In this document: positions 1,895 to 32,000 of the stretch, one piece after another
Layout of the letters: each line of letters begins with the position of its first letter
How positions within the stretch are numbered: the first letter of the stretch is position 1
NCBI GenBank assembly: GCA_047651235.1
Contig: CP178758.1
Span: forward strand, 900,001 to 932,000
Origin: Candidatus Electrothrix yaqonensis
GTDB lineage: Bacteria; Desulfobacterota; Desulfobulbia; Desulfobulbales; Desulfobulbaceae
Length of the DNA stretch: 32,000 nucleotides
Direction: 5' to 3'
The notes under the pieces: model-generated
Seen by the model: the letters and a program-made list of their open reading frames with translations, nothing else
Told to the model about the DNA's origin: nothing
The model's database searches: none
Position numbers and translations under genes: made by a program

Positions 1895-3343
1895 TTATTG
1901 AGCCTGCTCCTCCTGCACCTTCGGGACAAGGTTCTCCTGCACGTTTTTCTGCATATCCTTCATACGTCCCTCAATCTGCTTCTGCTGCATTTCCGGCACA
2001 GTTTTCTGTAGGGTTTCCCGCATGCTGTTCTGCATCTGCTTCGTGGTATCCTGCACCTGCTGGTTCATGCGTTCAGACATCTGCTTCTGCTGCATTTCCG
2101 GCACAGCGTCTTTGAGTTGTTCCTGGACGGAATCCCGCATCTGTTTTGTGGTATCCTGCACCTGCTGGTTCATGCGTTCGGACATCTGCTTCTGCTGCAT
2201 TTCCGGCACAGATTCTTTGAGTTGTCCCTGGACAGAATCCTGCATCTGCTTTGTGGTGTCCTGAACCTGCTGCTGCATACGTTCAGACATCTGCTTCTGC
2301 TGCATTTCAGGTACAGAATCGTTGAGTTGTTCCTGAACAGTGCCCTGCATCTTTTTGGACATATCTTTCGGTATATTGCCGGGCATACCTGGCATACCCG
2401 GGGCTGCGGACGGTCCTCCCGCCACCTCGGTCAGGGCTGCAATAATGGCATCGATATTTCTCTGCATGGCCTGCTCAAAAAATTCCTTGGTGTACTGACC
2501 ATTGGAAATATGGGAGAGGGCATAGAGGCGGCAGCCTGTCTCCTGGTAAATAATATCCACATATTTCTTCTCATAGTCCAGCTCGCCGAACAGGATATTC
2601 ACGTTGGCGCGTTTAATCCGCTTGATGGTATCCTGCAGCTGTCTGGCGCTGGGCCGCACCCCGTGTCTCGGCTGCACCACGGCACTGACCTCAATCCCCA
2701 GCTCCTGAAAGAGATAGGAGTAGCCGTCGTGTACTGTGGCGATGCGCACATTGTTCAGATTCAGCCTGTCCAGCTGCATCAGGGCGGACTGGAGCATATT
2801 GCGCAGTTCTGCTGAATAGGCCCGCACATTTTGTATAAAAGTTCCGGCCTGATCCGGGCAGAGCCTTGCCAGCTTTCTGGTGATCTTCTGCATCTGCTGG
2901 ATCGCGCCGGTTATGGCGATATAGGTGTGGCTGTTATAGGCAACCTTGTTGTCCTGTCCCTCAAAAGAGTAATGCTTGTTGAATGCAGGAATCAAAGGGA
3001 GTCCCTTGCTGGTGTCTATGACCAGCATCTTGTCGTTCTCAACAGCCTTGAGCATGGGTTTGATGAATTCATCATGCCCTACGCCGTTCACTATCACCAC
3101 ATCCAAACCCTCCAGCCTCTGCATATCCGAGGGCACCGGCTGGTAGGCATGAGGATCCGAGCCGGACGGAATCAGAGAGACGACCTCTGCCGCATCTCCG
3201 ACAATATTTTTGGTCCAGGAATAATACGGATGCAGAGAAGCACCGATCTTGAGACCGCAGTTTTTTCCCTGGGCAAATCCCGAACTGCAGCTCAGGACAA
3301 GACAGACGACAGCTGCGGACAGGCAACGCAATGTTTGTTTCAT
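1895..3343 (-). CDS. Metal ABC transporter substrate-binding protein (TroA/ZnuA cluster A-I) with a C-terminal Met/Gln-rich repeat extension
   Basis: Signal or lipoprotein-like N-terminus (LVLSCSSG). Family motifs present: GSDPHAYQP, IATVHDGYSY, LFGELDYE. The core ends near aa 306, followed by a Pro/Gly/Met linker and about 150 aa of 35-aa repeats. Confidence 0.85.
   Translation of the reverse strand: MKQTLRCLSAAVVCLVLSCSSGFAQGKNCGLKIGASLHPYYSWTKNIVGDAAEVVSLIPSGSDPHAYQPVPSDMQRLEGLDVVIVNGVGHDEFIKPMLKAVENDKMLVIDTSKGLPLIPAFNKHYSFEGQDNKVAYNSHTYIAITGAIQQMQKITRKLARLCPDQAGTFIQNVRAYSAELRNMLQSALMQLDRLNLNNVRIATVHDGYSYLFQELGIEVSAVVQPRHGVRPSARQLQDTIKRIKRANVNILFGELDYEKKYVDIIYQETGCRLYALSHISNGQYTKEFFEQAMQRNIDAIIAALTEVAGGPSAAPGMPGMPGNIPKDMSKKMQGTVQEQLNDSVPEMQQKQMSERMQQQVQDTTKQMQDSVQGQLKESVPEMQQKQMSERMNQQVQDTTKQMRDSVQEQLKDAVPEMQQKQMSERMNQQVQDTTKQMQNSMRETLQKTVPEMQQKQIEGRMKDMQKNVQENLVPKVQEEQAQ
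1898..2368 (-). repeat. In-frame tandem repeat with a 105-bp period: about 4 copies plus a partial one. It encodes VPEMQQKQMSERMxQQVQDTTKQMxDSVQxQLKxx.
   Basis: The string ctgcttctgctgcatttc recurs at 1976, 2081, 2186 and 2291, an exact 105-nt spacing. Confidence 0.9.
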
Positions 3344-3398
3344 GTTGATACCCTGTTCTTCTGTATTAAAAAGTGAAAGGAGCCGGAAATCATGGCGA

Positions 3399-4076
3399 TC
3401 AGCTTCCGGCTGGTTCTATAATCTTTCCATCAGCAACCTTTCCATCAACAGGAGCATTGCCGCTGACAACCCATTTCCAACCCCGCTTGACCAGACCGCC
3501 CTCCGGGTAGTCAACCGTCTGCGGGTTGACCCAGATCTGGGCGGAAAAACGGTTTTCCGATGCACTCTGCACATAGGGATACGGATACTTCCCGGCCTGC
3601 AGATCAATAATACGGAGGATAAAACTGTTTTCCAAGGGGTCAGCCCCTTTTTCTTCATCCAGCTTCGCGTTTTTGTTGACTCCGTAATAATCCACCCAAG
3701 TTGCTCCCCGGTGCATTTCCCAGACAAAACCGCGCAGGCCTGCAGGGAGAAAATTGCCGACAAAAGGCGGCAGAGCTTCCGCCTCAAGCGCAGCAATGTC
3801 CGGCCAGTTGCTCCCGGCCTCGTAGGTCCAGGTGATGCTATCCACAGCTCCCAGCAGCGAGCGGTACATAACCGGGGCCTGATTTTTCAGACGGATATCC
3901 CTGATCTGGTATGCTTTGCTGCCGGAGGAGGTTTCCTTCGGGGCAACCTGGAAAGAACGCAGGACGATGAAACTCAGAATAAGACAGATGGCAACCATAA
4001 GCCCGGCAAGCTCCCGGCCCGCTGCCAGAGGGGAGACAATGACCTCCCGGTATTCCTTTGTGACTGCAGCACTCAT
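3399..4076 (-). CDS. Hypothetical N-terminally membrane-anchored (predicted periplasmic) protein; first gene of the metal ABC operon
   Basis: 225 aa. One TM helix (LAGLMVAICLILSFIVL) followed by a soluble domain. GGAGGAG RBS 8-9 nt upstream of ATG 4076. The stop lies 55 nt before the SBP gene. No family recognised. Confidence 0.6.
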   Translation of the reverse strand: MSAAVTKEYREVIVSPLAAGRELAGLMVAICLILSFIVLRSFQVAPKETSSGSKAYQIRDIRLKNQAPVMYRSLLGAVDSITWTYEAGSNWPDIAALEAEALPPFVGNFLPAGLRGFVWEMHRGATWVDYYGVNKNAKLDEEKGADPLENSFILRIIDLQAGKYPYPYVQSASENRFSAQIWVNPQTVDYPEGGLVKRGWKWVVSGNAPVDGKVADGKIIEPAGS

Positions 4077-4110
4077 GGCTATCTCTCCTCCATCTGGCCT
4101 TTTTTATCTG

Positions 4111-4164
4111 ATTATAGAAGTTCTGTCCTACAGCGAAGTATTACTTTGATAGAATACGTAACAC
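4111..4164 (-). promoter_or_regulatory. Candidate promoter (-10 TATAAT, plus-strand 4111-4116) with an imperfect palindrome GTATTAC-N13-GTAACAC (4138-4164) over the -35 region
   Basis: The minus strand reads GTGTTAC gtattctatcaaa GTAATAC, then 21 nt, then TATAAT, about 35 nt upstream of ATG 4076. The half-sites match in 6 of 7 positions. Confidence 0.45.
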
Positions 4165-4204
4165 TGTTTGCGGGGCTGCGCAATATTTTTTTGCAGGGAG
4201 GTGT

Positions 4205-4230
4205 AAAAAAAATACTCACCGGCCGGTGAG
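4205..4230 (-). terminator. Rho-independent terminator after the cyclase gene
   Basis: The minus strand reads CTCACCGGCCGGTGAG (perfect palindromic hairpin) followed by TATTTTTTTT. Confidence 0.7.
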
Positions 4231-4291
4231 CAGGAAAATTCTGCAGGGGGCTGAACTACCTTTTTTACCAAAGCTTCTGACGAATCCCGGC

Positions 4292-6280
4292 TTATCCTCC
4301 CAGCACAGCAATAAGCGCCTGCACCACTTCGGGATCAAAATCCCCTTTTTCCACCCCATGCTGCAGTTCATAGAACGCCACCTTCATGTCCCACCGCTCC
4401 CGTCTGGAATGCCAGGAGGTGAGGGTGTCATAGGTATCGGCAACAGCAATAATGCGTGAACCCAGAGGAATATCCTTTTCTTTCAGACCGGACGGAAAAC
4501 CGCTGCCGTTATATTTTTCATGGCTGTGGTAAATCATTTTGAGCAGCTCATCATCGTGATAGCCGTTTTTTTTCAGAATTCTGGTGCTCTCAACACCGTG
4601 ACGGAGAAATTCCTGATATTCGTCTGAGCTGAGACTTCCTTTGCTGCGGTTCAGCAGATGATGCGGTACTGCCTCCAGCCCCACATCGGCAAGAAACCCG
4701 GCCCGGAGGATAGTCTTTTTTTTCTGCTCAGACTGGATGCCGAGTTTATCGGCAATGGCATAGGAAAGCAGAGCAACCACCTTGCCGTGCCCGATGCGTC
4801 CGTCCAGAACCTCGGAAGGAAGAATGACATCATCGGGTATATTGATGAATTTTTCAGCAGCACTGTATTTCTTGTAAAAAGCAGGGGTGATTTTTTCCCG
4901 ATCCAGTAAAGCATTTTTTATACCGACGACCTCATAGGCCGCTATCCTCCGGCTTTTTCCTTTCACCGAAAGACAGTTCCTGTCTTTCTGCATGGTTGCT
5001 TCGGCAAAGGCAATTTTAAGAGCATTATCTTCAGGCTTCAGATGCAGGGCCTGCGAGAAACAGGACAAAGCTTTATCGACCTCCATAATCGCCAGATTCA
5101 GCTGGCCGATCTGATGATAGATATCTGCCTTGACATGCGCATTGTCTGTTTCCAGCTGCTGTTCAAGTGCACTGATTTTTTTCTGGACCCCGGTCACCAG
5201 CGAGTCGGAGAGTTTGACCTCATGTTTAAGTTTTACCTCAATAAACGACCGGACCCCCTCCATTGTGGAGCTGTCGATAAGAACTGAACCGGGAGAACAT
5301 GCCTTTTCAAGACGCGATGACAGGTTGACGACATCGCCGATTGTTGTGTATGCCTGCCTTTTGGCCCCGATCAGGCCGACAATGGCCATTCCGGAGGCTA
5401 TGCCGATCCGCATCTGCCAAGGATATTTCCGGGACAGCATTTTTTCCTGCATCTTGATGGCGCAGACCACAGCCATGAGGCGATAATGCGTAAAATCAAG
5501 CGGTGTCCCGAATTCGCACATAATGCCGTCACCCTGGTATTTATCAATATGGGCATTATAGGCGAACATAATTTTTTCCATTTCACTGAAATACCTATTC
5601 AGATCCCGTGTCACCAGCTCCGGCTGCCGGGTTTCGGAGTAGGCGGTAAATCCGGTAAGATCAGTAAACATGACGCTGATTTTTCTCTTTTCATCCCGCA
5701 GGCGCCCCTCAATAATAAGTTTGGCCACAGTCGCATCCATTGTGGAATATAGGGCATCCTCCACCTTCCCCTTCATCATTTCCAGCATATTGCGGGATTC
5801 CTCCAGTTCCGCAGTCCGTTTGGATACCTCTCTTTCCAGGTCGCCGGCATTTTTCTGCAGGGAAAGGTTAGCCTGACGGAGTTCTTCCTGCTGCTCAGTC
5901 AGTACGTCGTTCAGGCGAAGGGCTTTCCTAGTCTCCCGAAGCAGTTTTTCCTGCAGCCCGCCGACAACCGCACCGGCAATGATCAGAAAAGAACCCCATA
6001 AAACAAGATGGATAATGACCTCCTGGCTGTTGGAGTTCGCTGTGAAATGCTCCGGAAAAAGAACAAAATAGAGGACGTTAAAAACTATGCAGAGCAAAGC
6101 GCTCAGCACCGTGTTGCGTCTTCCGAGATAGTAGCCGGAAACAATAACCGGCAGGTAATAGAAATTCAGAAAAGCTACTTTCTGAATAATAAGAGAATTG
6201 ATTACCGCTACACTGACAATGAGCGAAAAAATAAAGAACAGTTCAAAATGTCTCAGAATAAAAGATTTCAGGAATTCCAT
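4292..6280 (-). CDS. Membrane-bound class III adenylate/guanylate cyclase fused to TPR-like repeats and a degenerate HD-GYP domain
   Basis: N-terminal TM helices and a coiled coil. Cyclase motifs VMFTDLTGFT, KYQGDGIMCEFG and IGDVVNLSSRLE. C-terminal HSHEKYNGSGFPSGL...IIAVADTYDTLTS. The start is moved to ATG 6280 (MEFLKSF...), which has a GGAGA RBS. The 110 aa upstream in the track ORF look non-coding. Confidence 0.85.
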   Translation of the reverse strand: MEFLKSFILRHFELFFIFSLIVSVAVINSLIIQKVAFLNFYYLPVIVSGYYLGRRNTVLSALLCIVFNVLYFVLFPEHFTANSNSQEVIIHLVLWGSFLIIAGAVVGGLQEKLLRETRKALRLNDVLTEQQEELRQANLSLQKNAGDLEREVSKRTAELEESRNMLEMMKGKVEDALYSTMDATVAKLIIEGRLRDEKRKISVMFTDLTGFTAYSETRQPELVTRDLNRYFSEMEKIMFAYNAHIDKYQGDGIMCEFGTPLDFTHYRLMAVVCAIKMQEKMLSRKYPWQMRIGIASGMAIVGLIGAKRQAYTTIGDVVNLSSRLEKACSPGSVLIDSSTMEGVRSFIEVKLKHEVKLSDSLVTGVQKKISALEQQLETDNAHVKADIYHQIGQLNLAIMEVDKALSCFSQALHLKPEDNALKIAFAEATMQKDRNCLSVKGKSRRIAAYEVVGIKNALLDREKITPAFYKKYSAAEKFINIPDDVILPSEVLDGRIGHGKVVALLSYAIADKLGIQSEQKKKTILRAGFLADVGLEAVPHHLLNRSKGSLSSDEYQEFLRHGVESTRILKKNGYHDDELLKMIYHSHEKYNGSGFPSGLKEKDIPLGSRIIAVADTYDTLTSWHSRRERWDMKVAFYELQHGVEKGDFDPEVVQALIAVLGG

Positions 6281-24872: not shown

Positions 24873-24911
24873 GCGGAGGAAACATACCTCCGAAAACGGA
24901 GGCATGCAGAA

Positions 24912-25472
24912 ATGAAAACAGGACTGACTGATCATTTATGGACGCTCAAAGAGCTTTTCGCAACGACCGTTCTCGGTCGGCAACATTCAACAACTCACCA
25001 GGGTGACTGTCGAAAAATGAAATTCAAATTTACCCTTCTGTTCTTTGCAATATCAACTCTGCTGTTTGTAGTTGAAATTATTTTCAATTGTGATTTGATT
25101 GAAATCATCTATACAATGCACAGTAATATGCTGGATCGGTGCGCTTCAGTTGCTGTTTTAGCGGCAACCGGCTTGGTGATCGATTATATTATCAGCATAA
25201 AACGCAGAAAAGAACGCGAGAAAGTAGCAGCATATAATGCCGCCATGAGAGCAGCCAACCAGCTGCTGCGTGATTTGATGAACAGCATGATTATATTGTC
25301 CGCCTCAGAATCTGTAAAAGAAGAATTCGGTGATGACATTTCAGAGATAATAAACAAAAACATTAAAGATATGGAGCAAGTCCTCGAAGCCCTGACCGGT
25401 CTGAAAGAAATTACTCCGGAGATGATCAGGGAGATATCTGCTCCCTCGTATGCGGAAAATGAATCAGACTGA
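24912..25472 (+). CDS. Hypothetical membrane protein in an AT-rich patch; start uncertain (ATG 24912 with a GGAGG RBS, or ATG 25017)
   Basis: Two TM helices (FTLLFFAISTLLFVVEIIF and ASVAVLAATGLVIDYII) followed by a helical acidic tail. The first 35 aa (MKTGLTDHLWTLKELF...) look like a transposase C-terminal tail. Confidence 0.5.
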   Translation: MKTGLTDHLWTLKELFATTVLGRQHSTTHQGDCRKMKFKFTLLFFAISTLLFVVEIIFNCDLIEIIYTMHSNMLDRCASVAVLAATGLVIDYIISIKRRKEREKVAAYNAAMRAANQLLRDLMNSMIILSASESVKEEFGDDISEIINKNIKDMEQVLEALTGLKEITPEMIREISAPSYAENESD

Positions 25473-25496
25473 ACCGGAGTTCATTGTCCTGGAGGG

Positions 25497-25523
25497 TTAT
25501 CTGAATTATCTGAATTATCTGAA
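25497..25523. repeat. Perfect 9-nt tandem repeat (TTATCTGAA) x3
   Basis: Read directly from the sequence. Intergenic. Confidence 0.95.
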
Positions 25524-25559
25524 AACAGTATTGTACAGCAAGGGTGCAAAAAAATAACA

Positions 25560-25988
25560 ATGAAGTCCATCAATCCATTACTGTTTATCGGCATGATCGG
25601 CGTTTTTACCATAGGAAGCAGTCTTGCTGCTGATCTCATGCAGGTATTTTACGGGGACTAGGATATGTACTGGACGCATAAGGATAAGCCGTTGCCCCTT
25701 GAAAAAACCGGGGAACACTTTCAGATCTTTATCGGGGGGAAACCTCTGCAGGATCATCTGGACGGACAAACATTTTTTGCTGCGGATGCGGAGCTGGTGC
25801 CGTATCCGGTTGTTTCACAAGATGTTACAGTTCGGGTAAATAACTGGCATAAAGTAAAAGCGAGGACTCTGACTAAAACAACAATTACCGGTTTTGTATT
25901 CGGGGTTAACCTGACATTGATGATTGTGGGCTTGGTACAGACCTGTCTTCAGCGGAAGAAAAAGGCCGGTAATCGTCCAAGACGTTAA
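25560..25988 (+). pseudogene. Small bitopic membrane protein gene interrupted by an in-frame TAG at 25659-25661
   Basis: ATG 25560 encodes MKSINPLLFIGMIGVFTIGSSLAADLMQVFYGD, a signal peptide. TAG follows, and the same frame continues as D-MYWTHKDKPLPLEK... (track ORF 25665-25988) with a C-terminal TM helix and a basic tail. The gene ends 9 nt before the SulP start. Confidence 0.55.
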
Positions 25989-27902: not shown

Positions 27903-27979
27903 CGGAACGTAGCGCAGTCTGGTAGCGCACCTGAATGGGGTTCAGGGGGTCGGAGGTTCAAATCCTCTCGTTCCGACCA
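27903..27979 (+). tRNA. tRNA-Pro (anticodon GGG), with encoded CCA
   Basis: A manual cloverleaf fits. Acceptor stem CGGAACG/CGTTCCG, D stem GCGC/GCGC, anticodon stem CCTGA/TCAGG with loop AT-GGG-GT, T arm GGAGG-TTCAAAT-CCTCT. 77 nt. It is closely similar to the enterobacterial proline tRNA as I recall it. Confidence 0.92.
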
Positions 27980-28330: not shown

Positions 28331-28361
28331 TTGGGGAGAATTGCCGGTTGCCAAGGCATGA
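28331..28361 (+). repeat. Left copy of the 31-nt direct repeat bracketing the HepT/MntA module
   Basis: TTGGGGAGAATTGCCGGTTGCCAAGGCATGA compared with 29194-29224: 26 of 31 positions identical, with a perfect 13-nt core GAATTGCCGGTTG. Confidence 0.8.
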
Positions 28362-28449
28362 AAAACCCATTGCCCCGAAATCAACCTTTGGCAGCCCCAC
28401 GTTCTGAGATTGAGCAGGGCGCACCGGAGGGAGAGAGGGGGGGGAGTTC

Positions 28450-28791
28450 CTACGGCAGCTCTTCACGTTCAAGAAGCCGGTTGACCGCCTCTTTCAGCGC
28501 AGGCAAATCCTGTTCCACCGTCATCCAGACTTCGGCCATGTCCACGCCGTCATACTGATGAATGAGCACATCCCGGAAGCCTGCAATCTCTTTCCAGGGG
28601 ATATGCGGCACAAGTTGGCGGACTTCTTCGGAAATGCGTTTAGCAGCTTCGCCGATAATCTCAAAATTGCGGATAACCGCATCCTGTGTTTTGCCGTCCG
28701 CTGAAAATGTGGATTCCCCGTCCCCGGTGTATTCCTCTATCTTTTCGATGCACTCCCGGATATGGATGAGATACAGCCGTTGATCCTTCAT
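28450..28791 (-). CDS. hepT: HepT-type HEPN toxin (DUF86)
   Basis: 113 aa. HEPN R-x4-H motif in FRDVLIHQY. 4-nt overlap with the upstream MNT gene. Confidence 0.85.
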   Translation of the reverse strand: MKDQRLYLIHIRECIEKIEEYTGDGESTFSADGKTQDAVIRNFEIIGEAAKRISEEVRQLVPHIPWKEIAGFRDVLIHQYDGVDMAEVWMTVEQDLPALKEAVNRLLEREELP

Positions 28792-29066
28792 AAGGGCACT
28801 GCCTCTTTGATGATTTTATCCCGGACATACCAATGAACGCTTCGTTCCGTCACAACATCGACCTTGCGGCCCAACAGCTTTTCCAGCTCCTGCATAAAGG
28901 CGATACGCTTCAGCAGGCTGCCTTCCATATTCACAAGAAAATCAGCATCACTTGCCGCCGTGTTCTCGCCCCGTGCGAACGAGCCGAAGATTCGGATATT
29001 CTTTGCCCCGTATCTGCGGGCAAGCCGCATTATTTCATCTTTTCTGCTGTGCAGTTCATTCGCCAT
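28788..29066 (-). CDS. mntA: MntA-type minimal nucleotidyltransferase antitoxin
   Basis: 92 aa. Motif GSFARGE...SDADFLV (the GSxxRG...DxD NTase motif). Confidence 0.85.
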   Translation of the reverse strand: MANELHSRKDEIMRLARRYGAKNIRIFGSFARGENTAASDADFLVNMEGSLLKRIAFMQELEKLLGRKVDVVTERSVHWYVRDKIIKEAVPL

Positions 29067-29193: not shown

Positions 29194-29224
29194 GTGGGGG
29201 GAATTGCCGGTTGTCAGGGCCTGA
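29194..29224 (+). repeat. Right copy of the 31-nt direct repeat bracketing the HepT/MntA module
   Basis: GTGGGGGGAATTGCCGGTTGTCAGGGCCTGA. See 28331-28361. Confidence 0.8.
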
Positions 29225-29540
29225 CAGACGTTACCTGCGTATATTTTCCGGCTTTGCTTGGCTGGCAGAGTTGGGCATGTTTTGGTAGCATTGCACCGGG
29301 CCGCATGATTTGAGGCCGTGAAGAAAGAAAAGGGGTGGTGGCTAATCAATTTCAACGATTCGGTATATCCCTACCCTCACCCTCTGAATTGTAATTGCCA
29401 CAACGGACGGTATGCGTTGAATTCTGAAGTGATTTAAACACAGGTTGGTGAGATTGACAAGGGGGGAAGTGCGGCGGGTTTGGTGGTTCGGTGTCCGTTG
29501 CAGTGAGAACACAGCCTGAAAACTAACTAAAAAATCTCAG

Positions 29541-31028
29541 CTATTCGTTATTATCTGAACGCATACAACATTTTTTATACTTTTTCCCCGACCCACAGGG
29601 ACATTTCTCATTTCTTCCATATTTTACAGCCATTCTTCTATATGGTTTATTATTTTTGTTTCTTTCTTCAAACAAGGAAATGCGAGAAGTAAAAATATCA
29701 TTTAGTATCTGCTTGTCTTTGATAAGACTTTTAGCTTCATCTTTTTCTTCCTGAGTTAGATCATGAAAATATTCTATCGAAAGAATATCTTCTGATCGCC
29801 CTTTTGCCTCTTTAGGCTCTGTCGAAATACATACTAAATCCTTGGCTGTTGGATATAAATATTTTGCAACAAGTAAATATTGCTGCATGAACGTCAATCG
29901 TTTACTTCTACAGTCATTATAAATAACACCTTTAACCCTTGGCAAAAAAAGAAAAACAAATAGTTTCTCTGGCCTATCAGGTGAATATACTACCCTGCCA
30001 GATCGTTTATCATGAGGGACTTCATCAAATTTTTCGATAAATGCCTTTGAAAGAAGGGTTCTTGATAATCTATTTTCAGCCGATAGCTTTCTTACTGCTC
30101 TCTCATGATATTCAAATTCAATTTTTTTTGCTTCTTCATAACCAGTTGCTTTTAAAACATGATTCGTAAAATGTCTTATAAGACGATCCCATAAATAACT
30201 TTTCTTGCGTTCGCTGCATAACAGCTCATATTCTTGGCTATTTTTAATATTATTCCATAACCCCTCTGATAATAAAATCGGTTCATTTGTAGTTGAAAAA
30301 GCAAAAAATGGATTATTTTTCAAAAAATAGTAGGCCAACATTTCTTCTTCGCCGGAAGAATAAATTACAGCTCTATCCTTGATATTTTTTTCTTTAAATT
30401 TTAAATAATCAGTAAAATCTGAAGCTGTGTCTAGCTCAGTCATTAATAAATCAAGAGAAAACTTATCTAAAACGTGAATAAATGTTTTATCGGGGGAAAA
30501 ATTACCTAGTGTAAATGGATACTCAGAACATTGACTTTCATCATAAAGATAATTCTGTATGAAAGTACCTGAGCTTTCACCACCAAAATGATGAACAGCG
30601 GCTTTGTAAGAGTTCCAAGTAACCGCTATCAAATGAATCTCATAATCATGTTGATTAAGGAAAATTGGAAATTTTTTTTTGCATTCTTTATCAAGATATA
30701 ACCTGTCTGGATATTTTTTTATCCATGATTCAGCTCCATATAGTTGCTTCGATGATCTTATTACTGATTTTAAAAACCACCTTTTCCACGCTACATGAAG
30801 ATCAATATTAGAATTAAACGATATGTCTTTATCAGAAAAAACTATTATTTTCCTTTCAAAAACCACTAATAAATCACATAATTCTCTACCTTGACCTGTT
30901 TTGGAAATTCCTTCATCAGTATAAATATTTGGATAAGACCAAAGACCAAAAAACGTATCCTCAGAGAGTTTTGCAAGATATTTTTCGGTTTTGGTTGAAC
31001 CTTTTTGTTTAAGAATTGGCCTAAGCAT
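29541..31028 (-). CDS. AT-rich orphan protein: NERD/PD-(D/E)xK-like N-terminal region, an unassigned ~350-aa middle, and a C-terminal SEC-C zinc-binding motif
   Basis: The C-terminus is KCPCGSGKKYKKCC. The N-terminus is TEKYLAKLSEDTFFGLWSYPNIY...GRELCDLLVVFERKIIVFSDKD. ATG 31028 with a GGGAG RBS at 7 nt is preferred over the GTG 31055 given in the track. Three hand-counted 60-nt lines gave 22-35% GC. Confidence 0.7.
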   Translation of the reverse strand: MLRPILKQKGSTKTEKYLAKLSEDTFFGLWSYPNIYTDEGISKTGQGRELCDLLVVFERKIIVFSDKDISFNSNIDLHVAWKRWFLKSVIRSSKQLYGAESWIKKYPDRLYLDKECKKKFPIFLNQHDYEIHLIAVTWNSYKAAVHHFGGESSGTFIQNYLYDESQCSEYPFTLGNFSPDKTFIHVLDKFSLDLLMTELDTASDFTDYLKFKEKNIKDRAVIYSSGEEEMLAYYFLKNNPFFAFSTTNEPILLSEGLWNNIKNSQEYELLCSERKKSYLWDRLIRHFTNHVLKATGYEEAKKIEFEYHERAVRKLSAENRLSRTLLSKAFIEKFDEVPHDKRSGRVVYSPDRPEKLFVFLFLPRVKGVIYNDCRSKRLTFMQQYLLVAKYLYPTAKDLVCISTEPKEAKGRSEDILSIEYFHDLTQEEKDEAKSLIKDKQILNDIFTSRISLFEERNKNNKPYRRMAVKYGRNEKCPCGSGKKYKKCCMRSDNNE

Positions 31029-31158
31029 TTTCAGGCTCCCATGAGCTTTTTTCACTTTTTCTACAGCCCCTTTTTTGTCCGTAATCTGACAGTCTACGAA
31101 GCCTCCTATTTCCTTTGACAGTCTTTGATCAGTTGAGAACTTTAACGTTGTAGAGAGT

Positions 31159-31265
31159 TATAGCTGGAGCAACATAATTTGAATATGCCCACAAGAGGCA
31201 TAAGTTTTGCCTTCACGCCTTTCAGATAGCTGATCCTGTATTCAGTTTATACTGCTCCAGCTATA
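31159..31265. repeat. Perfect 13-bp inverted repeat TATAGCTGGAGCA / TGCTCCAGCTATA (31159-31171 and 31253-31265) with an 81-nt spacer
   Basis: Read directly from the sequence. It sits at the junction between the AT-rich gene's upstream region and the truncated transposase reading frame. Confidence 0.8.
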
Positions 31266-32000
31266 GCGGTAAAAAAAACACATTGGCACACGACGTTCGG
31301 GATAATTCACGTAGTTGAGCAGGAGTACAGACAGCCGGGAAAACGGTACCGGCCGTTCAGCCGAAGTGCCGGAATAACCTGCCGATGCTGCTCGCTGCCT
31401 CTGCAGCGTGCCGTAACAGATTTCGGGGCAGACCATTCCTTTGGTCGGGTTCCTGAAAAACTGAAGGAACATTATGGGATAACATTACCGGTAAGCACTG
31501 TCCGAAATATCACGGAGACTCACGCCCGACACATACATGAAAGACGTCGACAGGAGAGAATTGAAGAATATCCGTCTATAAAGGGACGGGACTTCGTTAT
31601 TGCCGAGACGGACGGCAGCATGGTTCCGATTGTCCTGACGGATACAGATGCCAAGGACCGGCGTAAAGGTAAAAAGCACAGCTGGAAAGAAGCACGCCTG
31701 AGTATAGCTCATGTTCTCGGTGAAAGGACGCTTAAATTCGGAGTTGCATTTCAGGAAAACGTTGACGAGTCGGGAAAGGTTCTCTTTGATTGCGCCTGCC
31801 GTGCGGGATTCGGTCGGGGTACATCTCTGCATTCAGTGGGTGACGGAGCAACGTGGATTTCCGGGCAGGTGAAAAAACAGTTCGGTTCACAGGGACATTA
31901 CCTTGTCGATTTTTATCATGTTTGTGAATACCTGGAGGCTGCTGCACCGGCATGTTCCGGGAAAGACGGAAAAGGATCATGGAGTAAGCAGCAGAAAGAG
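31230..32000 (+). pseudogene. 5'-truncated ISKra4/ISLre2-like DDE transposase; the reading frame stays open to the window edge
   Basis: The frame-0 translation has no usable start codon. It reads ...THWHTTFGIIHVVEQEY...LQRAVTDFGADHSFGRVPEKLKEHYGITLPVSTVRNITE...VIAETDGSMVPIV...WKEARLSIAH...HSVGDGATWISGQVKKQF...YLVDFYHVCEYL. The motifs ETDGSM, W(K/R)EA(K/R)L, GDGAxWI and DFYH are as recalled for this family. Roughly 100 N-terminal aa are missing. Confidence 0.55.

Follow-up and report, generated by a model that had tools for sequence, protein, structure and literature searches.

A SEC-C-tailed single gene in the cable bacterium Candidatus Electrothrix yaqonensis as a candidate one-protein anti-phage system

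What does a solitary, AT-rich gene for a protein with a SEC-C tail do in the genome of a cable bacterium? The gene in question lies on the minus strand of a 32,000-nucleotide stretch of Candidatus Electrothrix yaqonensis (GenBank assembly GCA_047651235.1, contig CP178758.1, forward-strand positions 900,001 to 932,000), which we call the window and in whose coordinates its features are given. The original prediction, drawn from the letters of the sequence, had read the product as a nuclease-like N terminus joined to a SEC-C tail, with an accessory or defence role. That interpretation is supported after a check of the three points on which it hung, namely whether the homologues have a housekeeping distribution, whether the predicted fold resembles that of a nuclease and whether the family keeps company with mobile and defence genes. 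We lean towards reading the gene as a self-contained module of one gene, gained by horizontal transfer and belonging to a large uncharacterised family, most plausibly a one-protein anti-phage (or anti-mobile-element) system.

An AT-rich gene and its family

The reading frame is real: it lies on the minus strand, encodes 504 amino acids and contains the translated strings that had been quoted for it. Three features define the gene:

29541-31055, minus strand: maximal open reading frame (ORF) of 504 uninterrupted codons with a GTG start at 31055, from the program-made ORF list.
29541..31028, minus strand: coding sequence of the SEC-C-tailed protein, 495 amino acids from the ATG at 31028, from homologue alignments and a GGGAG motif.
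~29520..31250, no strand assigned: low-GC tract covering the gene and about 200 nt upstream, with 26-42% GC in 100-nt windows.

Because the homologue alignments (with 39 and then with 256 homologues) begin at M10, which is the ATG at 31028, and because GGGAG lies 7 nt upstream of that codon, the real start is most likely this ATG, giving 495 residues. Residue numbers nevertheless follow the 504-residue frame throughout, which keeps them comparable with those proposed earlier. A 504-residue protein that is 100% identical (P0001) carries the annotation 'YecA family protein' in a metagenome-assembled genome (MAG) of Candidatus Electrothrix sp. YB6.

The composition of the gene is foreign, as had been claimed from hand counts. 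It measures 31.5% GC, with 22% GC at third codon positions (GC3), whereas the remainder of the window has 53% GC, and the SulP and HepT genes nearby have a GC3 of 56-60%. The earlier figure of about 58% GC for the flanks was somewhat high, the measured value being 48-56%. We presume that the low-GC tract is a horizontally acquired single-gene module. The closest relatives of the protein, at 54-57% identity, are a metagenomic sequence (P0002) and proteins of Marinobacter and Shewanella, whereas the homologue of Desulfopila is only 31% identical. Because the nearest relatives are those of Marinobacter and Shewanella and not that of Desulfopila, and because the composition is AT-rich, the sequence comparison indicates that the gene was probably acquired horizontally.

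The family is large: homologues number 851 at 90% clustering, and a threshold of E<=1e-30 leaves 1,467 clusters at 50% identity. Its members are collinear, nearly all 445-540 amino acids long, and are found in Gamma- and Betaproteobacteria, Desulfobacterota, Acidobacteriota and Cyanobacteria; plasmid copies occur in Xanthomonas, Agrobacterium, Rhizobium and Hymenobacter. The low GC content is a property of the family, as the gene has a lower GC content than its flanks in 26 of 27 loci (typically 34-38% versus 48-56%). Viral sequence collections also contain it: PHROGs gave a full-length match to phrog_18195, of unknown function (5.6e-121), and 13 IMG/VR contigs carry a family gene, and tblastn against INPHARED phages found nothing. 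A contig scan returned 80 matches, three of which (L019-L021) were true loci, the remainder arising from the SEC-C peptide pattern.

The gene also travels alone. In Vibrio parahaemolyticus it makes up exactly one cassette of the chromosomal integron, with the gene at 2993-4489 and attC-type repeats directly before it (2841-2962) and after it (4485-4606). No conserved partner emerged from 15 non-redundant loci, in which no Pfam family occurred more than twice among the 145 ORFs within 5 kb.

This solitary organisation bears on a further explanation, in which the gene would stabilise its carrier element as a selfish (addiction) toxin. The gene does adjoin a toxin–antitoxin (TA) pair in the window and has TA genes nearby elsewhere (HicB, PIN), and its predicted fold, described below, is nuclease-like. 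Against this explanation, neither a conserved partner that could be an antitoxin nor a small ORF upstream was found, the gene persists as a lone integron cassette, and it is carried stably and at high frequency on epidemic IncN plasmids. We therefore regard an addiction role as very improbable.

Mobile-element and defence contexts of the homologues

One argument for a defence role comes from where the homologues are found, which is in strong association with mobile elements and known defence genes. In complete Escherichia coli genomes the gene is present in 34 of 5,426 (0.6%) and always on accessory elements, these being IncN plasmids, P4-like satellites and prophages only, which is not the distribution of a housekeeping family. 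On IncN plasmids the gene lies between repA and the resolvase gene, and the cluster of the IncN orthologue (L001:8025-9500) has the full-length protein on at least 1000 contigs.

In the P4-like satellites integrated at tRNA-Arg in E. coli, the gene stands last, after psu and delta. The interval between psu and int is a defence hotspot of P4 (Rousset et al. 2022, PMC9122126) and, because the end that follows psu and delta corresponds to the psu-int interval in the circular element, these copies sit in that hotspot. In the consulted part of that study, Table S1 contains single-gene 'SEC-C' loci (WP_053286111) in at least 16 rows for the P4 psu-int hotspot, and WP_053286111 is absent from the consulted table of assayed systems. 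These loci are likewise single genes, have SEC-C as their only Pfam label and occupy the same P4 slot as the E. coli homologues, and WP_053286111 may belong to the family of the Electrothrix protein. A second set of P4 systems (Crouga, Bandua, Aernus, Toga, Reve and Hailong; 2026, PMC13586616) was considered and set aside, their architectures being different from that of the SEC-C-tailed protein.

Similar slots recur in other elements. A lambdoid prophage of E. coli has the gene in the interval from replication gene P to the nin region, its neighbours there encoding a restriction endonuclease and a HEPN protein. In Klebsiella, it is part of an element with the order integrase, three AlpA genes, Icd, DUF5906 primase, a hypothetical protein, the SEC-C gene, capsid, protease, portal, HNH and terminase; from this annotated order alone, we take the element to resemble a capsid-forming satellite of the phage-inducible chromosomal island (PICI) kind. 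A Klebsiella IncFIB/HI1B plasmid carries the gene beside PD-T4-5 (4e-114) and PifA (1e-261). In Marinobacter, it has an integrase on one side and an AbiJ-like Abi_C protein on the other; in a cyanobacterium, it adjoins HEC-01A/B; and in Pseudomonas viridiflava, it adjoins PDC-S64 and a transposase. In Vibrio, the next integron cassette encodes a DUF4917 protein that matches PDC-S21/SIR2-like (4.5e-116). Comparison of two V. parahaemolyticus strains (L012 and L013) showed this PDC-S21/SIR2-like cassette in one of them only, the surrounding cassettes being common to both.

In Pyrinomonadaceae, the gene lies between a gene for a 1,749-residue DrmD/BrxH-like helicase and one for a DUF4238 protein, which is followed by a deaminase; the DUF4238 protein had no PADLOC match at 1e-5. 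The corresponding MAG locus (L016, 4502-14542) is a compact island, in which the helicase has PDDEXK, RNase_H, SNF2 and DEAD domains and a 438-residue protein has a dCMP-deaminase domain.

Counted over the 15 non-redundant loci, a PADLOC protein lies within 5 kb in six, a raw count that comes without a matched background rate. The neighbours recognised in this way are PifA, PD-T4-5, PDC-S21, AbiJ-like, HEC-01A/B, DrmD-like and PDC-S64. Together with the P4 hotspot, the PICI-like slot, the moron slot of the prophage and the integron cassette, these neighbours place the family in defence hotspots by guilt by association. From this residence we infer that the protein may defend its host, a step from where the gene lives to what it does.

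The same contexts could be read differently, if the protein were an accessory nuclease that serves the mobile element itself, whether in competition between elements (as an anti-plasmid or anti-satellite activity), in counter-defence or in recombination and processing. Nearly all of the well-resolved contexts are indeed mobile elements (IncN plasmids, satellites, prophages and the integron), the IncN copies lie close to the ardB, ardK and ardR anti-restriction genes, and 92 of the 142 plasmid records are conjugative. By contrast, other members sit in chromosomal islands that have no obvious element genes and lie beside bona fide defence proteins (the Pyrinomonadaceae helicase and DUF4238 protein, and the cyanobacterial HEC-01). 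In addition, experiments have identified anti-phage systems in the slots that it occupies in P4 satellites and lambdoid prophages (PMC9122126, PMC13586616), and the position of the gene relative to replication or transfer genes is not fixed. We consider such an element-serving role unlikely, although it deserves to be kept in view.

A predicted nuclease-like core and an exchangeable tail

If the protein is an immune effector, which part of it would act? Outside the tail, about 450 residues gave no match to Pfam, NCBIfam, PADLOC or PDB sequences, and a Pfam scan of 40 diverse members returned nothing recurrent except SEC-C. We modelled the protein with AlphaFold2 from 40 sequences, which gave a mean predicted local distance difference test (pLDDT) of 88.6 and a predicted template-modelling (pTM) score of 0.84 for the full protein, and 89.8 and 0.88 for residues 10-262 alone. 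The model and the alignment divide the protein into the following parts:

30486..30998, minus strand: N-terminal restriction-endonuclease-like core, residues ~20-190, from AlphaFold2 secondary structure, Foldseek and invariant residues.
30270..30485, minus strand: extension of the N-domain, residues ~191-262, with invariant H194, D213, Y217 and E236 and near-invariant K221, from the AlphaFold2 model and the alignment.
30012..30269, minus strand: helical middle region, residues ~263-348, with conserved E327 and R332, from the AlphaFold2 model; family-specific and without a known homologue.
29700..30011, minus strand: C-terminal alpha/beta domain, residues ~349-452, with conserved R354, R383, R386 and S421-E422-D423, from the AlphaFold2 model and the alignment.
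29628..29699, minus strand: flexible linker, residues ~453-476, with pLDDT <50 for residues 456-476.
29559..29627, minus strand: SEC-C, or SecA-type metal-binding, knuckle, residues 477-499 (GRNEKCPCGSGKKYKKCC), matching PF02810 at 4e-09.

The predicted N-terminal core consists of a helix (residues 22-34), three strands (40-46, 57-66 and 69-76), a second helix (86-114) and a further strand (139-146), all with pLDDT >90. This order, alpha-beta-beta-beta-alpha-beta, is that of the restriction-endonuclease topology. When the N-domain alone was used as the Foldseek query, the top 50 PDB matches were almost all PD-(D/E)xK nucleases, drawn from at least nine distinct families. The best was the small subunit of R.BspD6I (E 0.039, probability 0.87, TM 0.48), and further weak matches were to Nt.BspD6I, Cdn1, VC1899, HincII, the R2 RLE, RecU, Can2, HerA-DUF4297 and RecB. 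In BFVD, which contained no member of the family, the top matches were PD-(D/E)xK, Cas4-like, RecB, RecE, YqaJ and UL24 proteins. Across PDB and BFVD, no match reached E<=1e-3, all having E>=0.014. Because these weak matches are uniform although none is significant, the model gives moderate support for a restriction-endonuclease-like fold of the N-domain, short of proof.

The original prediction had likened the N terminus to the core of NERD and PD-(D/E)xK nucleases. The broader half of that claim agrees with the predicted topology, whereas NERD was rejected: the query had no match to PF08378 even at E<=10, and only one of the 40 members had one, at E=0.23. An internal duplication, of the N-domain as the C-terminal domain for example, was ruled out by hhalign (probability <=0.3%). 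Neither the extension of the N-domain nor the C-terminal domain matched a Pfam family, the C-terminal domain had no PDB sequence match, and Pfam and Foldseek detected no CARF, SAVED or DNA-recognition domain in the protein or its family.

Conservation was assessed in an alignment of 257 sequences including the query, to which the homologues are 31-57% identical. D61 is found in 257 of 257, K76 in 256 and S74 in 255; E24, E58 and Q104 are each found in at least 255, and D75 in 248. In the model, E24 lies on helix 22-34, E58 and D61 on strand 57-66, S74, D75 and K76 on strand 69-76, and Q104 on helix 86-114. Among the residues that had been proposed as catalytic, E58, D61 and K76 can thus be called invariant and D75 is 96% conserved, whereas E67 and K69 vary. 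In the distal half of the protein, R332 and R386 are invariant, and R354, R383 and S421 are conserved in more than 90% of the sequences.

D61 and K76 fit the strand-2 and strand-3 positions of the PD-(D/E)xK signature, the (D/E) position of which is occupied by S74, with D75 next to it. Because D61 would face S74 and K76 in the beta-hairpin of the model, the arrangement looks like a candidate D...SxK site, to which E24, E58 or D75 may contribute the second acid. Cfr10I and NgoMIV use an SxK variant of PD-(D/E)xK in which the second acid comes from elsewhere, a precedent that we take as a lead. The closest comparison is with PD-(D/E)xK nucleases, above all the FokI-type cleavage modules of type IIS enzymes (R.BspD6I small subunit, Nt.BspD6I) and the defence nucleases Can2, Card1 and Cap4/DUF4297. 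The Electrothrix N-domain has their order of core elements in its predicted structure, and strand 2, strand 3 and helix 1 carry an Asp, a Lys and a Glu, respectively, that do not vary in its family. It departs from them in that no sequence or structure score is significant, in that Ser74 precedes Asp75-Lys76, and in that about 260 further residues of unassigned fold are packed on the N-domain.

The tail is the one part of the protein that could be named at once, and its assignment to SEC-C was correct: PF02810 matches residues 481-499 with 36.6 bits against a gathering cutoff of 20.4. SEC-C was matched in 40 of 40 aligned members, and C485, C487 and C496 are invariant among these 40 SEC-C-bearing members. 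The knuckle GRNEKCPCGSGKKYKKCC is near-identical to the SecA metal-binding domain, and the NCBIfam, PADLOC and PDB-sequence matches of the protein are all confined to its last 20-50 residues (the C termini of SecA, YecA and YchJ, and PDC-S12 and E2/E1-E2). It aligns with the C termini of SecA, YecA (AscA) and YchJ and, like them, is placed after a flexible linker; upstream of the knuckle, by contrast, the protein is unrelated to these three.

A census of the tails of 257 near-full-length members revealed that the knuckle is exchangeable. It ends 208 of them, 24 have a Lys/Arg-rich stretch in its place (for example, ...KPKKNQREIRQKRKDQRKRRKAARKRR), and 25 have neither, most of these ending soon after a conserved 'EYP' motif that precedes most of the alternative tails. 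Members with an alternative or absent SEC-C tail include P0225, P0231, P0233, P0235, P0241, P0246, P0252, P0256 and P0258. Thus, unlike in SecA, YecA and YchJ, the knuckle is dispensable or has a Lys/Arg-rich substitute in approximately 19% of this family. According to the consulted parts of two studies, SecA-like metal-binding domains bind SecB and ribosomes (10.1101/613315; 10.1101/2020.07.21.215244). The swap of the knuckle for a polybasic tail, judged by analogy, therefore suggests that the tail may be a generic tether to a polyanionic partner, be it the ribosome, SecB or nucleic acid.

The tail is also the source of the names under which the family is filed. The Prokaryotic Genome Annotation Pipeline (PGAP) calls it the YecA family, and some UniRef entries are labelled 'SecA' or 'Preprotein translocase subunit SecA'. 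Taken at face value, these names, with a tail near-identical to the SecA/YecA metal-binding domain, would make the protein a non-catalytic Sec- or ribosome-associated factor whose presence on mobile elements is incidental. Membership of YecA/AscA/YchJ was rejected, as the NCBIfam scores were 9-37 bits against cutoffs of 68-267 (TIGR04102, for instance, scored 28 against 68) and covered only the last 20-35 residues, and Pfam found no UPF0149 domain in the query or the 40 members. Because it rests on a tail of about 20 residues, 'YecA family' is a misnomer. The rarity of the gene in E. coli and its confinement there to accessory elements, the roughly 19% of members without a knuckle, and the invariant polar and charged residues in a nuclease-like predicted fold likewise speak against a Sec or ribosome factor, which we consider highly improbable.

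A further explanation is a more specific form of defence, in which the protein would be a modification-dependent (type IV-like) or otherwise DNA-directed restriction enzyme, with a FokI/BspD6I-like cleavage domain, a C-terminal DNA reader and a tail that adds DNA affinity. Such an enzyme would degrade invading DNA directly, as opposed to acting through abortive infection or at the ribosome. It fits the best structural matches, which are to the catalytic subunit or domain of the type IIS enzyme BspD6I, the lack of a methyltransferase partner at any locus, as expected of type IV enzymes, and the Arg-rich C-domain with the polybasic tails of some members. It fits less well with structural matches that are not significant, with a Pfam scan of 40 members that found no modified-base reader domain (SRA, YTH, EVE and so on), and with the SecA-type knuckle, whose partners as documented in the consulted parts of the literature are protein and the ribosome, not DNA. 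We rate this restriction-enzyme reading as rather improbable.

Knuckles of this kind are part of several PADLOC models of defence systems or candidates (PDC-S12, E2 and E1-E2, aligned with query residues 449-500) and of Rugutis. In PDC-S12 and the CBASS-type E2/E1-E2 proteins the knuckle is C-terminal, as in the Electrothrix protein, whereas the protein bodies are unrelated, the match covering query residues 449-500 only. Rugutis is a single-gene system of a lactococcal plasmid (pUCCL633_059, 359 amino acids) that has been validated against phages (PMC11381338). Compared by description only, it too is a single plasmid gene that combines a SEC-C motif with an otherwise novel fold without a PDB match, but it has 359 residues and an N-terminal SEC-C motif, as opposed to about 495 residues and a C-terminal one. 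No lactococcal name stands in the organism list of our family's plasmid matches, a list that covers 10 of 19 genera. Immune proteins may make repeated use of the SEC-C motif as an adaptor.

Mechanism, weighing of the evidence and the acquired island

For a one-protein defence system, we envisage the following mechanism. The N-terminal restriction-endonuclease-like domain would be the effector nuclease, with a putative site formed by D61 on strand 2, by S74-x-K76 with D75 on strand 3, and by E24, E58 and Q104 from neighbouring elements. This site would be an 'SxK' variant of PD-(D/E)xK, the second acid of which is supplied elsewhere. The helical and Arg-rich C-terminal domains might recognise a target or trigger and gate the nuclease. 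The flexible linker would carry a basic tether, which around 80% of members have as a SecA-type zinc knuckle and around 10% as a Lys/Arg-rich tail, and the tether might hold the enzyme on a polyanionic partner such as the ribosome, SecB or nucleic acid. Solitary nuclease-bearing genes are a familiar sight in defence islands; what is unfamiliar is this architecture and its SecA-type tether.

Several observations weigh against a defence function, or against the proposed chemistry. No full-length match exists in PADLOC-DB v2.0.0, where only the tail is recognised (residues 449-500; PDC-S12, E2 and E1-E2). The searched literature contained no paper on the family and no experiment on any member, although an unsearched study or supplement may hold one. 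The neighbourhood counts come without a matched control for the background, and PADLOC recognised none of the neighbours tested at the Shewanella and Desulfopila loci. Within the window, the TA pair is the only defence-like neighbour. The IncN copy is often truncated, as in a 246-residue form present on 191 contigs and, because truncated forms are common, the gene is dispensable there. Finally, a Ser takes the place of the canonical acid of (D/E)xK, which leaves catalysis in some doubt. We nevertheless continue to favour a one-protein anti-phage or anti-mobile-element system; the alternatives rank, in rough order of plausibility, as the element-serving nuclease, the type IV-like restriction enzyme, the Sec or ribosome factor and the addiction toxin.

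A bolder version of the defence model is also conceivable, although we regard it as a long shot. The family might represent a class of single-protein immune effectors that are stationed on the translation or secretion machinery. Docking on ribosomes or SecB would fall to the knuckle or polybasic tail. A change that the phage brings about there, be it a nascent phage protein or an altered state of the ribosome or SecB, would be detected by the Arg-rich C-domain, and the nuclease would then be released to cut rRNA, mRNA, tRNA or nearby DNA. If so, the SEC-C motifs on Rugutis, PDC-S12 and CBASS E2-like proteins would amount to a general 'ribosome-docking adaptor' of bacterial immunity.

In the cable bacterium, the gene is surrounded by the following features:

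27903-27979, plus strand: tRNA-Pro(GGG), found by ARAGORN and Rfam.
28450-28791, minus strand: HepT, Pfam HepT-like at 1.4e-31.
28788-29066, minus strand: MntA, Pfam NTP_transf_2 at 6.4e-15.
31160..31265, minus strand: long imperfect hairpin with a 27-nt inverted repeat, between the upstream region of the gene and the truncated transposase.
31272..32000, plus strand: ISKra4-family transposase, truncated at its 5' end and continuing past the end of the window, NF033572 at 1.1e-29 over profile positions 71-307 of 422.

The HepT/MntA pair had been named as a neighbour, and both proteins were matched by Pfam. By contrast, the gene is not directly downstream of a tRNA, as had been stated: the tRNA-Pro(GGG) lies 1.56 kb away, with the HepT/MntA pair between, and is a possible integration landmark of the island. 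A 35-nt direct repeat (28332-28366 and 29195-29229; 83% identical, 863-nt spacing), the 25-nt core of which was absent from 100 shuffles, brackets HepT/MntA, so that the pair resembles a separate small cassette inserted here.

On the other side, the description of the transposase as decayed was fair. The N-terminal part of the profile, about 70 positions, is missing from its frame, the first ~125 codons of which contain no start codon. The point of its 5' truncation is exactly where the AT-rich module begins. The hairpin between them (-42.5 kcal/mol, z = -5.0) could be an insertion sequence (IS) end, an insulator-terminator or a 5' leader. A scan of the window for promoters and terminators found sites no more numerous than in shuffled sequence, and inspection, by eye only, revealed no attC-like site flanking the gene. 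A second patch of lower GC (24900-25950, 40-46% GC) lies between opp-like ABC transporter genes and the SulP gene; its two plus-strand ORFs (24912-25472 and 25665-25988) had no Pfam or NCBIfam match.

For the cable bacterium, the gene marks a small acquired island, composed of the TA pair, the SEC-C gene and the IS remnant, near tRNA-Pro. For annotation, it exposes thousands of copies that are misleadingly named 'YecA family protein' or 'SecA'; annotated domains are lacking from about 90% of the protein. If validated, the family would be a widespread single-gene addition to the anti-phage repertoire, numbering 1,467 or more clusters at 50% identity. Its carriers are IncN resistance plasmids of epidemic spread, satellites of the P4 and PICI-like kinds, prophages and the integrons of Vibrio. 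The interchange of knuckle and polybasic tail offers a testable handle on why SEC-C recurs in defence proteins.

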